42,524 nucleotides of DNA from an uncultured Dehalococcoidales bacterium (GTDB lineage Bacteria; Chloroflexota; Dehalococcoidia; Dehalococcoidales; BS750m-G39). Position 1 is the first letter of the stretch. Each line of letters starts with the position of its first letter. Under the pieces are notes generated by a model, which saw only the letters and a list, made by a program, of their open reading frames with translations, did not search any database and had not been told where the DNA came from. Positions 1,924 to 41,068 of the stretch are shown piece after piece. Location: contig CAYNFV010000001.1 in assembly GCA_964396645.1 (NCBI GenBank), positions 1 through 42,524 on the forward strand, given 5' to 3'. The translations under genes were made by a program, and so were the position numbers.

Positions 1924-1997
1924 ATATACAGAAGGTCTTAAAGGGACAAGGCGATAGCGGGAAACAAGAATCGGGGGCAGGGAGGTGTTACCTAGCC

Positions 1998-2211
1998 GTT
2001 AAGGGGTTTACCCATTAGGGCGGGCTGGGTTGGGACAGAATTACGTACGCTAACAGAGTGGGGATGTAGGGTCTGGATTCCTGCCTTCGCAGGAATGACA
2101 GAAATGTTTTAGAGATTGCTTCGCCCTTCGGCTGAAAAACTCGCAATGACTGAGGGGTGTGGAGAGAAGTCTATAGAGGTGACACCTCTATAGGGAGGGT
2201 ATTGGGTGGGA
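1998..2211. repeat. Intergenic mosaic repeat locus 1 (modules A, B, C, D in tandem)
   Basis: Module A 1998-2064 is gttaaggggtttacccattagggcgggctgggttgggaca..acgtacgctaacagagtgggg. Module B 2075-2100 is ggattcctgccttcgcaggaatgaca. Module C 2114-2150 is gattgcttcg..ctcgcaatgac. Module D 2164-2211 is gagaagtctatagaggtgacacctctatagggagggtattgggtggga, containing an 11-bp-arm palindrome at 2171-2193. Each module recurs at 16818-17046, 38788-39067 and/or 40779-41027. Confidence 0.8.
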
Positions 2212-2246
2212 AAACAACCTGGGGGGTGGGGCTCAGGAGTCTTTTC

Positions 2247-5400: not shown

Positions 5401-5706
5401 ATGAGTTTTGAGGACAAGCAACTCCAGTGCTCCGACTGTGGAGCCGAGTTTACCTTCAGCGCCGAGGAACAAGAGTTCTTCCAATCCAAGGGCTACACCA
5501 ACGAGCCCAAGCGCTGTCCCGCCTGCCGCGAAGCCAGGAAAGCACAACGCTACGGTAATGATAGCTACGGCTACAGGTCCCGGCGTCAGATGTTCCCGGC
5601 GACGTGCGCCGAGTGCGGTAAGGAAACCGAAGTCCCGTTCGAGCCGAGAGAAGGCAGACCGGTATATTGTAGCGAGTGCTACAACAAGATTAGAACGAAC
5701 CGATAA
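5401..5706 (+). CDS. Small double zinc-ribbon protein (two CxxC..CxxC units), paralog 1
   Basis: 101 aa with a strong SD (gagaggagg). Unit 1 is CSDCG-x21-CPAC; unit 2 is CAECG-x17-CSEC. From memory it resembles proteins annotated as 'zinc-ribbon domain containing' / CxxC-x17-CxxC. By hand alignment it shares 65 identical positions with the ORF at 10943-11236. Confidence 0.8.
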   Translation: MSFEDKQLQCSDCGAEFTFSAEEQEFFQSKGYTNEPKRCPACREARKAQRYGNDSYGYRSRRQMFPATCAECGKETEVPFEPREGRPVYCSECYNKIRTNR

Positions 5707-10942: not shown

Positions 10943-11236
10943 TTAACTGCCTTCTCTTTGCTTAGCGTAACACTCTTTGCAATAGACCGGGCGCCCCTCT
11001 CTGGGCTCAAAAGGCACGGTGGTTTCGACGCCGCACTCGGCACAGGTTACGGTGAACATCTGCCGCGGTTGCCGGTAATCACCAAAGCGCTCTTTCCGCC
11101 TGGCCGCCCGACACTCCGGACAACGAGAGGGCTCGTTCTGCAAACCGTGAGACTGGTAGAACTCCTGCTCACCGACGCTGAAAACGAACTCCTGCCCGCA
11201 GTCGCGACATACGAGGGTCTTGTCTTCCAGAGCCAT
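10943..11236 (-). CDS. Small double zinc-ribbon protein, paralog 2
   Basis: 97 aa with SD gaggagg 7 nt upstream of ATG 11236. It has the same CxxC..CxxC / CxxC-x17-CxxC architecture as 5401-5706 (CRDCG..CPEC; CAECG..CKEC). Confidence 0.8.
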   Translation of the reverse strand: MALEDKTLVCRDCGQEFVFSVGEQEFYQSHGLQNEPSRCPECRAARRKERFGDYRQPRQMFTVTCAECGVETTVPFEPREGRPVYCKECYAKQREGS

Positions 11237-16763: not shown

Positions 16764-16817
16764 AGATTTTTACTAAACCTCATCCAACGCCTTCTAAGAT
16801 TCCTCATTAAGCCTTGG

Positions 16818-17046
16818 GATTGCTTCGTTGCTGCGCTCCTCGCAATGACAGGGGTAGAGTAGAGAGGCTGGATTCCCGCTGGAGTTTACCCCGTAAACCG
16901 ATACGGGGCGGGAATGACAAAATGGGGGTGGGGTAACGTACCCCCAGGTTAAGGAGTTTACTCATTAGGGCGGGCTGGGCCTGCCTGCGCGTAGCCGCTT
17001 CGGCGAAGGCAGGTTGGGACAACAAACGCACGTTGGCAAGGTGAGG
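16818..17046. repeat. Intergenic mosaic repeat locus 2 (modules C, B-long, and A carrying a nested hairpin insert)
   Basis: Module C lies at 16818-16850. The long B variant at 16870-16928 is ggattcccgc[tggagtttaccccgtaaaccgatacgggg]cgggaatgacaaaatggggg. Module A lies at 16947-17046 and is interrupted at 16980-17013 by cctgcctgcgcgtagccgcttcggcgaaggcagg. Confidence 0.8.
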
Positions 17047-17073
17047 TAAAGGGGAGATTGCTGCGCCCCTCCT

Positions 17074-31168: not shown

Positions 31169-31237
31169 TCAAAAATTGGTTTCTTTTCATCTTCCCCTCC
31201 GCCACCAACTGAAGTATAATGAGACAAGGGAGAGATT

Positions 31238-31900
31238 ATGAAGGTTGTCTTCCTCCAAGACGTGCCCGATGTAGCCAGAGCCGGCGAGGTAAAGGAGGTA
31301 GCCGACGGCTACGGCCGTAACTTTCTCATCCCCCGAAAACTGGCCGTCCTGGCCAGCCCCCAGGCAATGAGCCGGGTGGTGACCAGCGACAAGGTCCAGG
31401 CCCGGAGCGATGAAGAACTGGTCGAGCTGGCCAAGCAGCTGGAAGGGAAAGAGGTCAGCCTCAAGGCGCACGCCGGCGCTAAAGAACGGCTCTATGGCTC
31501 CATCACCAGCGCTGACATCGCCGCCGAGCTGGAGAGCGCCACCGGGCTGGTCGTCGATAAGAGAAAGATTGAGCTGGACAAGCCCATCCACCAGCTCGGT
31601 AGCTACGAGCTGACCATCAAGCTGGGCAAAGACATCACCCCCAGGATAACGGTCAACGTTATCGAGGAAGAGCCCGCCAAGGAAGAGAAGCCAGCCAAAA
31701 AGGCCAAGAAGGCGACTAAGAAAGCGGAAAAGAAGCCGGCCAAGGAAGAACCCGCCGAGAAGAAGACTAAGGCGACTAAGACGACTAAGAAGAAGGAAAC
31801 CAAGGCAACCAAGGGAAAAAAGCCGGCCAAGAAAGAAACGGCCACCAAGAAAACGAAGAAGACCACCAAAGCCAAGACAACCAAGAAGGAGAAGGCTTGA
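31238..31900 (+). CDS. rplI: 50S ribosomal protein L9 with a 78-residue Lys/Thr/Ala-rich C-terminal extension
   Basis: The N-terminal MKVVFLQDVPDVARAGEVKEVADGYGRNFLIPRKLA is the canonical L9 N-domain. The C-domain ends near residue 142 (..TVNVI). Residues 143-220 are repeats of the EEPAKEEKPAKKAKKATKK type. A tataat at 31215-31220 lies upstream. Confidence 0.85.
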   Translation: MKVVFLQDVPDVARAGEVKEVADGYGRNFLIPRKLAVLASPQAMSRVVTSDKVQARSDEELVELAKQLEGKEVSLKAHAGAKERLYGSITSADIAAELESATGLVVDKRKIELDKPIHQLGSYELTIKLGKDITPRITVNVIEEEPAKEEKPAKKAKKATKKAEKKPAKEEPAEKKTKATKTTKKKETKATKGKKPAKKETATKKTKKTTKAKTTKKEKA

Positions 31901-31903
31901 GAG

Positions 31904-33289
31904 ATGACCAACGAGAAGCTGCCGCCGCACGATGTTGACGCCGAGGAAGCCGTAATCGGCTCCCTGCTCATCGACGGGTCGGCGATTTTCAAGGTTGCCC
32001 CCCTGCTGGTGGCACTGGAGAATAAATCGCCTTTTTACACCGAGCGCAACGCCTGGATATACGATGCCTGCCTGGCGCTCTACGAACGTGATGAAGCCAT
32101 AAACCAGATAACGGTGGCTCAGGAGCTCGACCGCCAGGGTAGGCTGGAGGCCTGCGGCGGCGCCGCTTTCTTAAGCCGGCTCATAGCCACCTGCCCCACC
32201 TCGCTCGATATCGAAGACTACGCCCAGATTGTCTATCGCCTGGCGGTAATGCGCCGCCTCATTGATGCCGCCGGGCAGATTCAAAATATTGGTTATAGGG
32301 CCGAGCCCGACGTCAATGCCAGCCTGAACCAGGCGGAGGATATCCTCTTCCGGCTGCGCCACGGGCGCAGCCGGCGAGACCTCACCCACATCCGCCAGGT
32401 ACTGGACACATACTTTGAGACCACCACCCCCGAGGAGGCAGGCACCCCCCGGGAACGGTTGCCCTACGTTCTCGCCGGTTTCGCCGGGCTGGATGAGTTC
32501 CTGGGCGGATTTCAGCGCTCCGACCTGATTATCATCGGCGGCCGGCCGAGCATGGGCAAGACCAGCCTGGCCCTGAGCCTGGCCCGAAACGCCGCTGTAG
32601 AGCAGGGGGCTTGCGTGGCTCTGTTCAGCCTGGAGATGGCGCGGGAGCCGCTGGTATGGCGCATACTGGCCAGCGAATCCGAGGTCGACTCCAGACGGGT
32701 CCGCCTTGGTCTTCATACCGAAGAGCAGGAAAAACGGATTATGGACGCTATCGGCCAGCTCTCCGAGGCCAAGATATATATTGATGATACCCCTCAGCTG
32801 CGGGTGGTTGAGATGAGGAGCAAGGCCCGCCGCCTGCACTTCGAGCAGGGTATTGACCTGATCATCGTTGACTACCTGCAGCTGATGCAGGGGGACAGGC
32901 GGTTCGACAACCGCGTCCAGGAGGTCAGCGAAATCTCCCGCGCCCTCAAAGGCCTGGCCCGTGAGCTTAACGTGCCCCTGCTGGCGGTATCGCAGCTCAG
33001 CCGTGCCCCGGAGGGAAGGGCATCGCACGAACCACAACTTTCCGACTTGCGTGAGAGCGGGAGCATCGAGCAGGACGCCGATGTCGTCGTCTTCGTCTAC
33101 CGCGACGAATACTACTACCCCAGCAAAGAGGACTGGGAAAGGGAGCACCCCGGCGAAAGCTACCCCCCGCCGGCGGATATCATCATCGCCAAGCACCGCA
33201 ACGGCCCCACCGGCACCATAAAGCTGCTCTTCAAGCCGAGGATGGCCAAGTTCGAGAACATTCCCAACCAGGAACCGAGCCTGCTATAA
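31904..33289 (+). CDS. dnaB: Replicative DNA helicase DnaB
   Basis: N-terminus PPHDVDAEEAVIGSLL, Walker A GGRPSMGKTS, Walker B IIVDYLQLM, SQLSR and ESGSIEQDAD motifs. It follows rplI directly, which is the conserved rplI-dnaB linkage. No intein is present. Confidence 0.9.
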   Translation: MTNEKLPPHDVDAEEAVIGSLLIDGSAIFKVAPLLVALENKSPFYTERNAWIYDACLALYERDEAINQITVAQELDRQGRLEACGGAAFLSRLIATCPTSLDIEDYAQIVYRLAVMRRLIDAAGQIQNIGYRAEPDVNASLNQAEDILFRLRHGRSRRDLTHIRQVLDTYFETTTPEEAGTPRERLPYVLAGFAGLDEFLGGFQRSDLIIIGGRPSMGKTSLALSLARNAAVEQGACVALFSLEMAREPLVWRILASESEVDSRRVRLGLHTEEQEKRIMDAIGQLSEAKIYIDDTPQLRVVEMRSKARRLHFEQGIDLIIVDYLQLMQGDRRFDNRVQEVSEISRALKGLARELNVPLLAVSQLSRAPEGRASHEPQLSDLRESGSIEQDADVVVFVYRDEYYYPSKEDWEREHPGESYPPPADIIIAKHRNGPTGTIKLLFKPRMAKFENIPNQEPSLL

Positions 33290-37212: not shown

Positions 37213-37217
37213 CAGCC

Positions 37218-37400
37218 CTAAGCCTTTCTGATTTTAGCTATATACCCAACGTTGATTATATCTCGACCCACTATAATATAGTCAGCACCTATCTCACCGA
37301 GTACACCTTTAATCTCACTAGCCAAAGCTACGCCGATGAGGACTTTTACTTTCTGCCCTATCCACTCCTGTGGTATAGCCGCCGTAAAACGTTTTTCCAT
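37218..37400 (-). CDS. Hypothetical 60-aa protein (possible Sm-like/beta-barrel fold)
   Basis: MEKRFTAAIPQEWIGQKVKVLIGVALASEIKGVLGEIGADYIIVGRDIINVGYIAKIRKA. SD aaggggga lies upstream, and the gene sits 5 nt upstream of holB and 27 nt downstream of lysA. The G.kVkV....ei.G.L.e...DyiiV pattern is reminiscent of Sm-like proteins, but that is only a guess. Confidence 0.45.
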   Translation of the reverse strand: MEKRFTAAIPQEWIGQKVKVLIGVALASEIKGVLGEIGADYIIVGRDIINVGYIAKIRKA

Positions 37401-37427
37401 ACCAGTCCCCCTTACCCTAAAGTCTCC

Positions 37428-38732
37428 TTAAACCAAATCAAGGCGGGTCAGGTCGTCAAAAGTCTGGCGTTTCCGAATGAGCCGCGCCTTGCCTTCCTTG
37501 ACCAGAACAATGGCCGGTTTAAGCGCGGCGTTATAGTTGCTTGCCAGCGGCAGGCAATAGGCACCGCAATCAGCCACCGCCAGAATATCGCCGGCAGCCA
37601 GCGGGGGCAGCATAACATCCCTGATGATTATATCCCCTGATTCACAGAACTTGCCGGCAATGGTGACCTTTTCCGTCTCCCTTTCTCTCATATTGTTAGC
37701 TACCACCGCCTCGTGCTTAGCCTGGTAGAGGGCGGGGCGGATGTTATCGGCCATGCCGCCGTCCACCGAGACGTAGCGCCTGACGCCGGGAATGTCCTTT
37801 ATAACCCCCACCGTATACAACGCCACCCCTGACCGCCCCACCACCGAACGCCCCGGCTCGACAGTAAGCCTTGGCTCTGCCAGCCCCAGCTTACTACAGC
37901 CGCTAATGACAGCTGAGGTCATCGCCTCAGCGTAGTCGGCGATGGCTGGGACAGGAGAATCCAGGGTATATTGAACAGCGAAGCCGCCGCCAACATCCAG
38001 CTCCTCCATCTCAAAGCCGTGCTTCTTTTTCATCTCGGCGGCAAAGCTGAGGATGATGTCTATCGCCTGCTGATAGGGCTCAAGCTCGGCAATCTGCGAG
38101 CCAATGTGAAAATGCAGCCCTCGCAGCTTAAGCTGGGTTGACAGGACAGTAACCAGCGCCTTCTCACCCTGAACCATGGGCACGCCGAACTTGCTGTCGA
38201 GATTACCGGTGATTATGTACTTATGGGTATGGGGGTCGACGCCGGGGGAAAGCCGCAGTAGTATATCGGGATTATTGCCGCGTTCGCCGGCGATTTCATT
38301 CAGCATAGCCAGCTCCTGGAAGTTGTCCACTACGATGCGCCCCACCCCCCACTCCAGCGCCAGCTTCAATTCTTCTGCCGACTTATTGTTGCCGGGGAAA
38401 TAGACCCTATCCATGGGGAAACCCGCCGAGCGGGCAACGCTCATTTCGCCCGCGGAGACCACGTCCAGCCCCAACCCTTCTTCATTTAAGAGCTTGGCCA
38501 GAGCCTTGTTGATAAAAGCCTTGGCCGAGTAGAGCACCGCGCTGTTGGCATAGCGCCGGCTAAACTCCTGCTTAAACTCGGCGCACCTGTTGCGTATGCC
38601 GAGCTCGTCAAAGACATAGAGCGGCGTGCCAAACTCGGCGGCTAAATTTACGCTATCGCAGCCGCCGATGAGCAGGTGTCCCTTATTATCAACCTCAGCC
38701 GTTGAGGGAAATAAAACCAGCTTTGATGTCAT
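37428..38732 (-). CDS. lysA: Diaminopimelate decarboxylase
   Basis: 434 aa. PLP-Lys context YSAKAF, HFHIGSQ, DVGGGF, and the CESGD motif of the Orn/DAP/Arg decarboxylase family 2. Confidence 0.9.
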   Translation of the reverse strand: MTSKLVLFPSTAEVDNKGHLLIGGCDSVNLAAEFGTPLYVFDELGIRNRCAEFKQEFSRRYANSAVLYSAKAFINKALAKLLNEEGLGLDVVSAGEMSVARSAGFPMDRVYFPGNNKSAEELKLALEWGVGRIVVDNFQELAMLNEIAGERGNNPDILLRLSPGVDPHTHKYIITGNLDSKFGVPMVQGEKALVTVLSTQLKLRGLHFHIGSQIAELEPYQQAIDIILSFAAEMKKKHGFEMEELDVGGGFAVQYTLDSPVPAIADYAEAMTSAVISGCSKLGLAEPRLTVEPGRSVVGRSGVALYTVGVIKDIPGVRRYVSVDGGMADNIRPALYQAKHEAVVANNMRERETEKVTIAGKFCESGDIIIRDVMLPPLAAGDILAVADCGAYCLPLASNYNAALKPAIVLVKEGKARLIRKRQTFDDLTRLDLV

Positions 38733-38787
38733 TTACCTCAATGTTAGCAGTGAGAGGGGGTTAAGTCAATTGGGAAGTATGGCTACT

Positions 38788-39067
38788 GTCATTGCGAGCG
38801 AAGCGAAGCAATCTCCACCCCACCCAAAGTCTTACTACCCACACCAGCCCGCCCACAAAGGTCCTTCAAAGGGGTCTTCGCCTCCTCTTCAACCCCCCAA
38901 TACCAATGTCATTCCCGTGAAGACGGGAATCCAGCCCCTTTGACTACTATCCTGGATCCCTGCCGGAGTTTACCCCGTACAGGACACGGGGCAGGGATGA
39001 CAAAATGGGGGTGGAGCGAGAAGTCTATAGAGGTTACACCTCTGTAGGGTGGGTATTGGGTGGGACA
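38788..39067. repeat. Intergenic mosaic repeat locus 3 (C inverted, partial A inverted, B inverted, B-long, D)
   Basis: Inverted C at 38788-38813 is gtcattgcgagcgaagcgaagcaatc. A partial inverted A lies at 38838-38860 (..ccagcccgccc..). Inverted B at 38908-38932 is gtcattcccgtgaagacgggaatcc. B-long at 38954-39012 is ggatccctgc[cggagtttaccccgtacaggacacgggg]cagggatgacaaaatggggg. D at 39018-39067 is gagaagtctatagaggttacacctctgtagggtgggtattgggtgggaca. Confidence 0.8.
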
Positions 39068-39080
39068 GAAAGACCTTCGC

Positions 39081-39118
39081 TAAACAAGAAACAAAAAGGG
39101 GGACACCTGCCCCCCTTT
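39081..39118 (-). terminator. Rho-independent terminator of the CoA-ligase gene
   Basis: An 8-bp stem, aaaggggg (39095-39102) pairing with cccccttt (39111-39118), encloses an 8-nt loop. On the minus strand it is followed by a T-rich run (tttttgtttcttgttt). It starts 6 nt after the ligase stop codon. Confidence 0.6.
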
Positions 39119-39123
39119 CACAG

Positions 39124-40692: not shown

Positions 40693-40778
40693 CTCAACAA
40701 CCAGTTTACAATAAAAGCCCCTTTTTTACAAAGCTGATAGAGCCACCCCCCGATTTTATCCATCCTACCCCACCTTGT

Positions 40779-41027
40779 TTAGCGTACGTGTTATTGTCCC
40801 ACCCTGCCTTCGCCGAAGCGCCTGCCCGCCGCACAAGGCTTTGGTAGGCGGGGCTGCGCGCAGGCAGGCCTGCCCACCCAACAGAAGTCTTTTTTAATGG
40901 GGGCTATGCCCTCCTTAAAACCCCCTTAAGGTGGGGGTGGGTGGCGTAACCCGCAAGTTAAGAAGTTTATCTTATTAGGGCGGGCTGGGTGGGTCCGAAA
41001 CAACGTACGCTTACAGAGTGGGGTGGG
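40779..41027. repeat. Intergenic mosaic repeat locus 4 (inverted module A with a doubly nested insert, plus a direct module A)
   Basis: The inverted A at 40779-40879 is tttagcgtacgtgttattgtccca|ccctgccttcgccgaagcg[cctgcccgccgcacaaggctttggtaggcggggct]gcgcgcaggcagg|cctgcccaccc. The direct A at 40957-41027 is gttaagaagtttatcttattagggcgggctgggtgggtccgaaacaacgtacgcttacagagtgggg. Confidence 0.75.
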
Positions 41028-41068
41028 TGGTGGGTGGGAAGAAGAACCTGCGCCTCCAATTCCTCAAT

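Follow-up and report, generated by a model that had tools for sequence, protein, structure and literature searches.

Mosaic arrays of NTS-type hairpins and lineage-specific hairpin-G-tract repeats in four intergenic gaps of a Dehalococcoidales contig

We analyzed a 42,524-bp contig (~57% G+C; hereafter the window) of an uncultured Dehalococcoidales bacterium in which four intergenic gaps are filled with short, recurring hairpin modules, here labeled with letters. Cluster-mates of its benzoate-CoA ligase at >=90% identity are named as Dehalococcoidia or Dehalococcoidales, and genes identical to those of the window occur in JGI sediment metagenomes. The gaps lie between the divergent miaB-like and fabF genes (G1, 1893-2308), between the convergent dapA and GNAT genes (G2, 16764-17073), downstream of a CoA ligase gene and upstream of lysA (G3, 38733-39123), and downstream of a hemN-like gene and upstream of the ligase gene (G4, 40693-41068). 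Two superfamilies are interleaved in them: motifs of the NTS/dRS3 type (module B in a short and a long form, and module C) and lineage-specific elements (A, D and related subtypes). We consider it probable that the four gaps are arrays of selfish single-stranded DNA (ssDNA) hairpin repeats resembling the neisserial NIMEs and the bacterial interspersed mosaic elements (BIMEs), strand-polar and placed in the untranscribed spacers between terminators and promoters.

A sequence-only reading of the contig had proposed that the modules recur at four loci, only in gaps and in both orientations, and all of this was borne out. G1 to G4 are true intergenic gaps, and blastn-short links them to one another with no significant copy (E <= 0.01) within genes. 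When a nhmmer profile of the A/D family, derived from other contigs (two of which overlap the G4 copy), is run on the window, it matches at the four gaps only. The core strings ATTAGGGCGGGCTGGG and CTCGCAATGAC each occur three times, against 0.07 and 0.00 expected, respectively. Phantom open reading frames (ORFs) do arise from the repeats, at 16807-17031 (minus strand, 74 aa) and 38626-38943. That these are the sole repeat-filled gaps is correct, but the contig also has seven further gaps of 160-440 nt, all repeat-free. The earlier module list omitted the 34-nt hairpin E and the inner hairpin of two long-form B copies.

Module B is the NTS/dRS3/SRM hairpin, a target of Ssn nucleases characterized in 2025. 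Chenal et al. 2025 (PMC11893778) describe the Neisseria Transformation Sequence (NTS), CGTCATTCCCGCGMAVGCGGGAATCYRG, which contains the dRS3 repeat ATTCCC-N8-GGGAAT, and define a degenerate "Ssn-related motif" (SRM; HGTCWY..RNCYNB). SsnA, a 94-aa single-domain GIY-YIG protein, binds the NTS hairpin and cuts beside it; it acts on ssDNA only and on one strand only (the GTCAT strand), and RNA is not a substrate (PMC11893778). In both Neisseria and Wolbachia, the NTS-type hairpin is bound and cut by a ~95-aa Ssn (PMC11893778). Module B has the same sequence, GTCATTCC(C/T)GC-GAAG-GC(G/A)GGAATCCAG, and it is likewise intergenic and multi-copy, with oriented non-palindromic feet and a covarying stem. 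B has four copies in the window and C has three, and each of them lies in a gap. The copy at 38907-38934 fits both the SRM pattern and the dRS3 consensus exactly (one SRM regex match in the window versus 0.37 expected); its positions 38910-38929 read ATTCCCGTGAAGACGGGAAT, that is, ATTCCC-N8-GGGAAT, and the other copies differ from it by compensated pairs. The view that the modules could not be assigned to a described element is therefore wrong for B and, by extension, for C; for this part, the refuting outcome named in the earlier reading, a match to a characterized repeat family, applies.

The modules extend well beyond the window, with B found across phyla and A in sediment metagenomes. A one-genome-per-species collection has the exact B pattern in >120 stretches, which together represent nearly all bacterial phyla; the matches listed include Bacteroidota, Pseudomonadota, Chloroflexota, Nitrospirota, Planctomycetota, Omnitrophota, candidate phyla radiation (CPR) groups, Cyanobacteria and Spirochaetes, as well as one Nanoarchaeota metagenome-assembled genome (MAG) and isolate genomes. 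From these we used a set of 120 B-selected 8-kb loci from many phyla (L004-L123). The frame GAT-stem-loop-stem-ATGAC occurs in them 250 times with 44 stem sequences, versus 0-29 occurrences for control frames. Stem covariation was scored on 53 sites chosen by the frame alone, blind to pairing, with the sites picked by the search itself excluded. The NTS-type helix is paired at 92.7% versus 81.3% in shuffles, shows 42 double-change cells where 7.9 are expected (0/500 shuffles), and has compensation at all six variable pairs.

Published ssn genes typically have the motif on their flanks, and Ssn is encoded in 81% of genomes carrying >200 SRMs; it is reported mainly in Pseudomonadati, with Chloroflexota unmentioned (PMC11893778). 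Among the B-selected loci, tblastn identified Ssn homologues in 6 of 120, and the single-domain GIY-YIG fold (PF01541) was confirmed for two of these and for a small ORF from L014. Here too the hairpin flanks small GIY-YIG genes in other phyla, and locus L122 has an NTS-ssn-NTS arrangement. When the 235 hairpins of these loci are considered in pairs <=100 nt apart, 54 pairs are inverted in one arrangement, 8 in the opposite one and 6 are in tandem, with inverted-doublet spacers of 7-92 nt. The commonest arrangement is the one found around ssn in L122, and it is shared by the G3 pair at 38907-38934 and 38952-39002, an inverted doublet with a 17-nt spacer. This suggests that the inverted doublets are gene-less miniature derivatives of an autonomous NTS-ssn-NTS unit. 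A separate arrangement is seen in Flavobacteriaceae bacterium GF1 (L071, 6601-7828), where five B hairpins lie ~300 nt apart in near-identical units; this array of tandem ~300-bp units adjoins a partial ssn homologue at the end of the locus.

The two long-form B copies (16868-16919 and 38952-39002) have an 8-bp outer stem around YGGAGTTTA and a covarying inner hairpin. Because the same architecture recurs in loci of Syntrophaceae, Sedimentisphaerales (Planctomycetota) and Saccharibacteria (L005, L049, L081, L160), the long form is a conserved variant rather than a product of chance nesting. A second long form (TCCCCG..CGAGGACAGGTTCC) is present in L027 and L045. Module C, GTCATTGCGAG..CGAAGCAATC, has GTCATT/AATC feet in common with B and is enriched along with it in B-selected loci from many phyla (14-17 matches versus ~1 expected). 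Module C and long-form B are relatives of the NTS-type hairpin and, like it, are found across phyla. The proposal that every module is an imperfect palindrome holds for B and D (fold z of -2 to -5); it does not hold for the 5' part of A, nor for C, because the stem of C is 5 bp and its stability is like that of shuffled sequence.

The second superfamily has a narrower distribution. A metagenome scan with the A core returned 91 stretches, all from sediment samples, which contain at least 82 distinct A copies; anchoring on the G-tracts gave 146 distinct family copies with several central-hairpin subtypes. A and D had been listed as separate short modules, and both proved to be variants of one longer element of ~100-130 nt, composed of a 5' hairpin, a central hairpin, a G3-tract (G-quadruplex) motif and a conserved tail. 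Across copies and orthologous gaps, the 5' and 3' regions are common to A and D and the central hairpin alone differs. A and D are thus one family, specific to a sediment Dehalococcoidia lineage. The 5' hairpin has a GCGTAA-like loop on a 5-bp stem, and its stem variants (GTGGG/CCCAC, GGGGC/GCCCC, GGAGG/CCTCC, GTGGA/TCCAC, GGAGT/ACTCC) show compensation as read by eye. When the A copies were simply aligned with MAFFT and folded with RNAalifold, this hairpin was missed because the region misaligns. The 3' part follows GGGnGGG-n(2-5)-GGG-n(1-2)-GGGA(C), then RAAA-ACnnnCGC-nAACAAGGTGGGG. A long-range helix between the 5' and 3' parts of A (GCGTA/TACGC) was discarded, since the more frequent tail, GTTCGC, is unable to pair.

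Covariation extends to the central hairpin of this family. In the subtype with a 3-nt loop, whose copies were chosen on the two innermost pairs only, 89.1% of positions are paired versus 83.6% in shuffles, and there are 28 double-change cells against 10.6 expected (0/500 shuffles). Stem covariation, which had been set out as a check on the modules, is therefore present in both the NTS-type hairpin and the A/D central hairpin. Frequent G.T pairs correspond to A.C mismatches on the opposite strand, which indicates that structure is kept on the G-rich strand specifically. A search of open-access literature turned up no account of modules A, D, F or C, with sequence strings matching primers only; hairpin plus G-tract elements and the 34-nt hairpin E were likewise not found in the open-access papers and preprints searched.

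Every complete copy carries its G-tracts as a canonical short-loop G-quadruplex motif, and five of the nine such motifs in the window fall within the gaps, which make up 3.5% of its bases. The A/D G-tracts would thus be expected to form G-quadruplexes. A related subtype, K, lies at 40725-40781 on the minus strand and has 17 intergenic copies in lineage loci; it consists of a GC hairpin followed by CCTTAAAAGGGTGGnGGGyGGGAATAGATAAAATCGGGGTGGGG. The tail of the neighboring element (40763..40802) and the adjacent GGATAAAAT of K together create a promoter-like TAAACA-17-TAAAAT at 40781-40753, upstream of the CoA-ligase gene. These features bear on an explanation that we consider highly unlikely, in which A, D and K are domesticated promoter-proximal elements whose G-quadruplex, protein-binding sites or portable -35/-10 boxes tune the downstream gene. 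The short-loop motifs and the tail-K junction would fit such a role, as would the many copies directly upstream of TTGACx..TAtAaT boxes and the orientation of A elements, 41 of 54 of which are directed towards the gene on their 3' side (rough gene calls). However, copies also occur in convergent gaps and antisense to both neighbors (G2, G3), and their presence at housekeeping genes varies among close relatives. The orientation bias is equally compatible with strand-specific insertion relative to replication, and may reflect either a replication-strand bias or a promoter-proximal role.

The arrays have a strict polarity. Of the 19 perfect-stem NTS-like hairpins on lineage contigs, 15 have an A/D element no more than 200 nt away, and 14 of these 15 are co-oriented with it, with the GGAT..ATGACA reading on the G-rich strand. 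G3 and G4 each consist of two polar blocks, head to head. Transcription signals flank the arrays: the G3 array lies between the ligase terminator (39119-39094) and a lysA promoter-like site (38769-38741), both conserved in relatives, and in G1 a miaB-like promoter-like site (1923-1895) lies outside the array, which is upstream of it. Since the terminator and promoters are outside, the arrays occupy the spacer between transcription units. No terminator-like site coincides with any module; the ligase terminator is the sole clear one in the gaps, and a weaker match (2218-2237) lies in flank sequence beside the D element. An intrinsic-terminator role, one of those suggested for the modules at the outset, was rejected because no module has a T-run.

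These signals also bear on a broader reading in which the modules act as RNA, as 3'-end protecting stem-loops, terminators, or small or cis-regulatory RNAs. The covarying stems, the frequent G.U-compatible pairs in the D hairpin and the mostly sense placement of A elements relative to the downstream gene would all be consistent with it. We nevertheless give it a very low probability, since the modules lack T-runs and leave the terminator and promoters outside, occur in both orientations inside one gap, and vary in content at the same site between close relatives. Furthermore, no Rfam covariance model matched at the gathering score and none matched in the gaps even at E <= 5, a tRNA scan found nothing in the gaps, and SsnA is inactive on RNA (PMC11893778).

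Module E provides a record of insertion. In G2, the 34-nt hairpin (CCTGCCTGCGCGTAGCCGCTTCGGCGAAGGCAGG) splits the A copy at 16980-17013, and an identical 34-mer splits a different host subtype in locus L195. An E copy with an extra 29-nt hairpin splits a third host subtype in G4 (40803-40868), a subtype found uninterrupted in L148, L172 and L188. The insertion site, ..GG^(G/T)TGGGA, is constant in all three host subtypes and lies between the third and fourth G-tracts; E has entered it at least three times. Its terminal inverted repeats are 7 bp long, and the three independent insertion sites show zero target duplication; A/D elements have no terminal inverted repeats. The modules had been called repetitive extragenic palindrome (REP)/BIME-like or miniature inverted-repeat transposable element (MITE)-like. 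A hairpin-repeat mosaic is the right kind of thing, and the MITE reading was rejected because of the missing target duplication.

Site-specific, duplication-free insertion is the outcome of the ssDNA "peel-and-paste" transposition of IS200/IS605 elements. An unlikely alternative is accordingly that the modules are of the REP/REPIN type and are moved by a REP-associated tyrosine transposase (RAYT) or an IS200/IS605-type Y1 (HUH) transposase encoded elsewhere, with Ssn uninvolved in this lineage. Besides the fixed site of E, the strand polarity of the arrays and the REPIN-like inverted doublets are compatible with this alternative, and G-tetraplexes have been reported for some REP oligonucleotides in ssDNA form and proposed as RAYT recognition elements (PMC4690160). 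Against it, neither a Y1 transposase nor any recurring family of ORFs was found close to the repeats in ~0.73 Mb of lineage contigs. The foot of B is the GTCAT of the NTS and not the GTAG-type foot of REPs, REPs in BIMEs alternate in orientation whereas the window arrays are co-oriented, and B is the very sequence demonstrated as an Ssn substrate (PMC11893778).

The composition of the G1 and G2 arrays is as follows. G1 opens with a complete A-type element on the plus strand (1973..2067; nhmmer E = 6e-20, aligned with 64 copies), made up of the 5' hairpin region, the palindrome TTAAGGGGTTTACCCATTA (1999-2017), the G4 motif GGGCGGGCTGGGTTGGG (2018-2034) and the tail (..ACGTACGCTAACAGAGTGGGG). 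Next comes a short NTS-like B hairpin on the minus strand (2073..2100), which reads TGTCATTCCTGCGAAGGCAGGAATCCAG, folds as ssDNA at -8.8 kcal/mol (z = -5.1) and differs from the NTS consensus by C1>T and one compensated stem pair. It is followed by a C copy on the minus strand (2114..2150; z = -1.9), whose stem is 5 bp only (ATTGC/GCAAT) with an inner mini-hairpin, and by a D-type element without tail on the plus strand (2164..2220; nhmmer E = 4e-5, fold z = -3.5), which combines a 10-bp hairpin, CTATAGAGGT-GAC-ACCTCTATAG (2171-2193), with the G4 motif GGGAGGGTATTGGGTGGG (2193-2210). G2 starts with a C copy (16818..16850, minus; z = +0.2, no stabler than shuffled sequence) and a long-form B (16868..16919, minus; z = -2.9), whose 8-bp outer NTS stem surrounds the inner hairpin CCCCGT..ACGGGG. 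An A-type element on the plus strand follows in two pieces, a 5' half broken after the third G-tract (16920..16979; nhmmer E = 5e-12, profile 7-67) and a 3' half, TTGGGAC..GGCAAGGTGAGG (17014..17051; nhmmer E = 2e-4, profile 62-106); the E hairpin between them (16980..17013, plus) folds at -10.1 kcal/mol.

In G3, a C copy on the plus strand (38787..38813) reads TGTCATTGCGAGCGAAGCGAAGCAATC and is followed by a degenerate A/D-family element on the minus strand (38826..38888; nhmmer E = 0.01) with partial matches to lineage copies. The short B copy on the plus strand (38907..38934), TGTCATTCCCGTGAAGACGGGAATCCAG, is the SRM regex match (fold z = -4.2), and the long-form B on the minus strand (38952..39002; z = -2.0) has the stem variant GGATCCCTGCC..GGCAGGGATGACA with a compensated T>C / A>G pair. 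The array ends in a D-type element with tail on the plus strand (39018..39088; nhmmer E = 5e-12), consisting of the hairpin, the G4 motif GGGTGGGTATTGGGTGGG (39047-39064) and GGGACAGAAAGACCTTCGCTAAACAAG. In G4, a reversed A/D-family element on the minus strand is represented by its tail-bearing 3' half (40763..40802; nhmmer E = 2e-10) and its 5' half (40869..40921; nhmmer E = 1e-3), the latter with the GC hairpin GGAGGGC-ATA-GCCCCC ... GACTTCTGTTGGGTGGGCAGG. Between them, at the same G-tract position of the host, sits the E copy (40803..40868, minus) with its further nested 29-nt hairpin (CCCCGCC..GGCGGG). A complete A-type element on the plus strand (40927..41027; nhmmer E = 7e-22) closes the array, with G4 motifs at 40978-40993 and, further on, 41020-41038.

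Outside the four gaps, an inverted repeat of 111 nt (71% complementary) at 5572-5682 and 10967-11077, 5.3 kb apart, overlaps oppositely oriented small ORFs, which probably represent a pair of small paralogous genes that have diverged. Imperfect AAG/GCC-rich direct repeats at 31663-31863, coding repeats rich in lysine, alanine and glutamate, fall where ORFs 31187-31930 (minus) and 31238-31900 (plus) overlap. Between lysA and the DNA polymerase III delta' gene, a 60-aa ORF (37213-37427) is conserved in three independent contigs and has no Pfam match.

Comparison with relatives indicates that the arrays turn over at syntenic sites. The ligase-lysA gap is 182 nt long in the relative represented by L219/L220, where it holds the terminator, one D-type element and the promoter; it is 323 nt with a different module set in the relative L215, and 391 nt in the window, where two B, one C and a degenerate element are added.

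The arrays are also associated with an inversion. Contig L140 overlaps and extends the right end of the window, and the resulting order is CNNM, an array with block copy 2, M16(+) GroEL(-) GroES(-) TsaD(-) hemN(+), G4 with block copy 1, and ligase. Two relatives have the order TsaD(+) GroES(+) GroEL(+) M16(-), a module-free 135-nt gap, and ligase. In L221 (4991-9865), which reaches further upstream, a CNNM gene and an array precede TsaD, and the hemN-like gene is absent at the corresponding place. The ~6-kb TsaD-GroESL-M16(+hemN) segment is therefore inverted relative to these two related MAGs. On its two sides lie inverted copies of a composite 257-nt block, 97.7% identical, one at 40767..41023 of the window and the other ~4.5 kb past its right end (L140, 3507-3763). 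The breakpoint separates the M16 promoter region from the ligase-proximal 45 nt. Recombination between the inverted copies or intramolecular replicative transposition would either explain the inversion, and the role in recombination that had been listed among the possible functions is supported by it. Contig L172 may be the un-inverted isomer or a chimera. Four contigs (L002, L003, L140, L172) end inside arrays, and many A-scan matches lie <=100 nt from a contig end. Since lineage contigs often end in this way, the arrays act as assembly breakpoints, and MAGs probably under-represent them.

In the reading that we favor, of selfish ssDNA-hairpin arrays, a nuclease or transposase encoded elsewhere would act in trans to copy the units and insert them in single-stranded form, probably at replication forks; for B and C, the leading candidate would be an Ssn-type enzyme. 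Copying at the ssDNA level would yield co-oriented, nested arrays. Several observations weigh against this reading. Only one B copy meets the strict published SRM pattern, with long-form B and module C outside it, and C folds no better than shuffled sequence under a nearest-neighbor model (z of -1.9, +0.2 and +0.3). Covariation fits ssDNA and RNA structure alike, the gene-ward bias of A elements could reflect a transcription-related role rather than a replication-strand bias, and the evidence for the inversion comes from short-read metagenome contigs whose ends lie in repeats. Moreover, searches of the window and of ~0.73 Mb of lineage contigs turned up neither a GIY-YIG (Ssn) gene (regex, tblastn) nor a Y1 transposase or recurrent protein family; all-against-all ORF clustering of the lineage loci returned orthologues only. 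We infer the actor in this lineage, rather than observe it, because of these absences. By tblastn, a cd10448-type single-domain GIY-YIG protein was found in none of these lineage loci versus 6 of 120 loci elsewhere; a search for Ssn homologues, with 120 of ~8000 listed and the few named ones betaproteobacterial, was uninformative on Dehalococcoidia.

A further possibility, to which we assign little probability, is that NTS hairpins are the working ends of a phylum-spanning non-autonomous mobile system, served by Ssn in trans and coupled here to a hairpin plus G-quadruplex cargo (A, D, K, E). The cargo elements would then be copied as ssDNA and inserted at defined points in one another, NTS-ssn-NTS would be the autonomous unit, and doublets and singlets would be its miniatures.

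Tiny nested elements and modular composites are known from cyanobacterial small dispersed repeats and pneumococcal BOX elements, which differ from the present arrays in having unrelated sequences and hosts and no NTS-type hairpin component. Relative to the NTS/SRM system, most window copies deviate through compensated stem changes, the long inner-hairpin form or the weakly paired C; they sit among, and are co-oriented with, unrelated lineage-specific elements; and no ssn gene, of the kind that typically accompanies the published motif, was found in the lineage loci searched. In organization the arrays resemble NIMEs (dRS3 plus RS; Bentley et al. 2007, PMC1797815), which are likewise intergenic mosaics of a dRS3-type hairpin and many 50-150-nt repeat families, with syntenic array sites whose content varies between relatives and an association with recombination. 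In the window, however, A/D/E units are mostly flanked by dRS3-like hairpins on one side or neither and not on both, and the companion elements have a defined hairpin plus G-tract architecture with a common polarity. The published account stated that NIME arrays are not seen beyond Neisseria (PMC1797815), whereas the host here is a Chloroflexota lineage. With REP/BIME/REPIN and IS200/IS605 systems, the arrays share short extragenic hairpin mosaics, inverted doublets, a strand-specific ssDNA logic, the sequence-specific insertion of E without target-site duplication, and the G-tetraplex potential reported for some REPs (PMC4690160). They differ in foot sequence, in being co-oriented (14/15) instead of alternating, in that no RAYT gene was found in lineage loci, and in the length of the A/D units, which is 3-4 times that of a REP. 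Module B is already characterized; the A/D elements, the site-specific E, the strict polarity and the inversion with its inverted repeat copies are new variants.

Half of the finding is thus explained by a family characterized in 2025. Uncultured sediment Dehalococcoidia, far removed from Neisseria, also have NIME-like mosaics built on the hairpin that Ssn targets. The near-universal spread of the hairpin among phyla, mostly as gene-less inverted doublets, is what would be expected of a mobile element, and it bears on the purpose of Ssn nucleases. For genome reconstruction, the arrays matter as sites that interrupt metagenome assemblies, give rise to phantom ORFs and border at least one apparent inversion. 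The G-tract elements, with E inserted at a fixed site, offer a clean comparative system for insertion at the ssDNA level. If the NTS hairpins were indeed the ends of a mobile system carrying such cargo, Ssn would be a transposase-like enzyme and not only a restriction-like modulator of transformation, and G-quadruplex-bearing mobile repeats would have been identified in bacteria.

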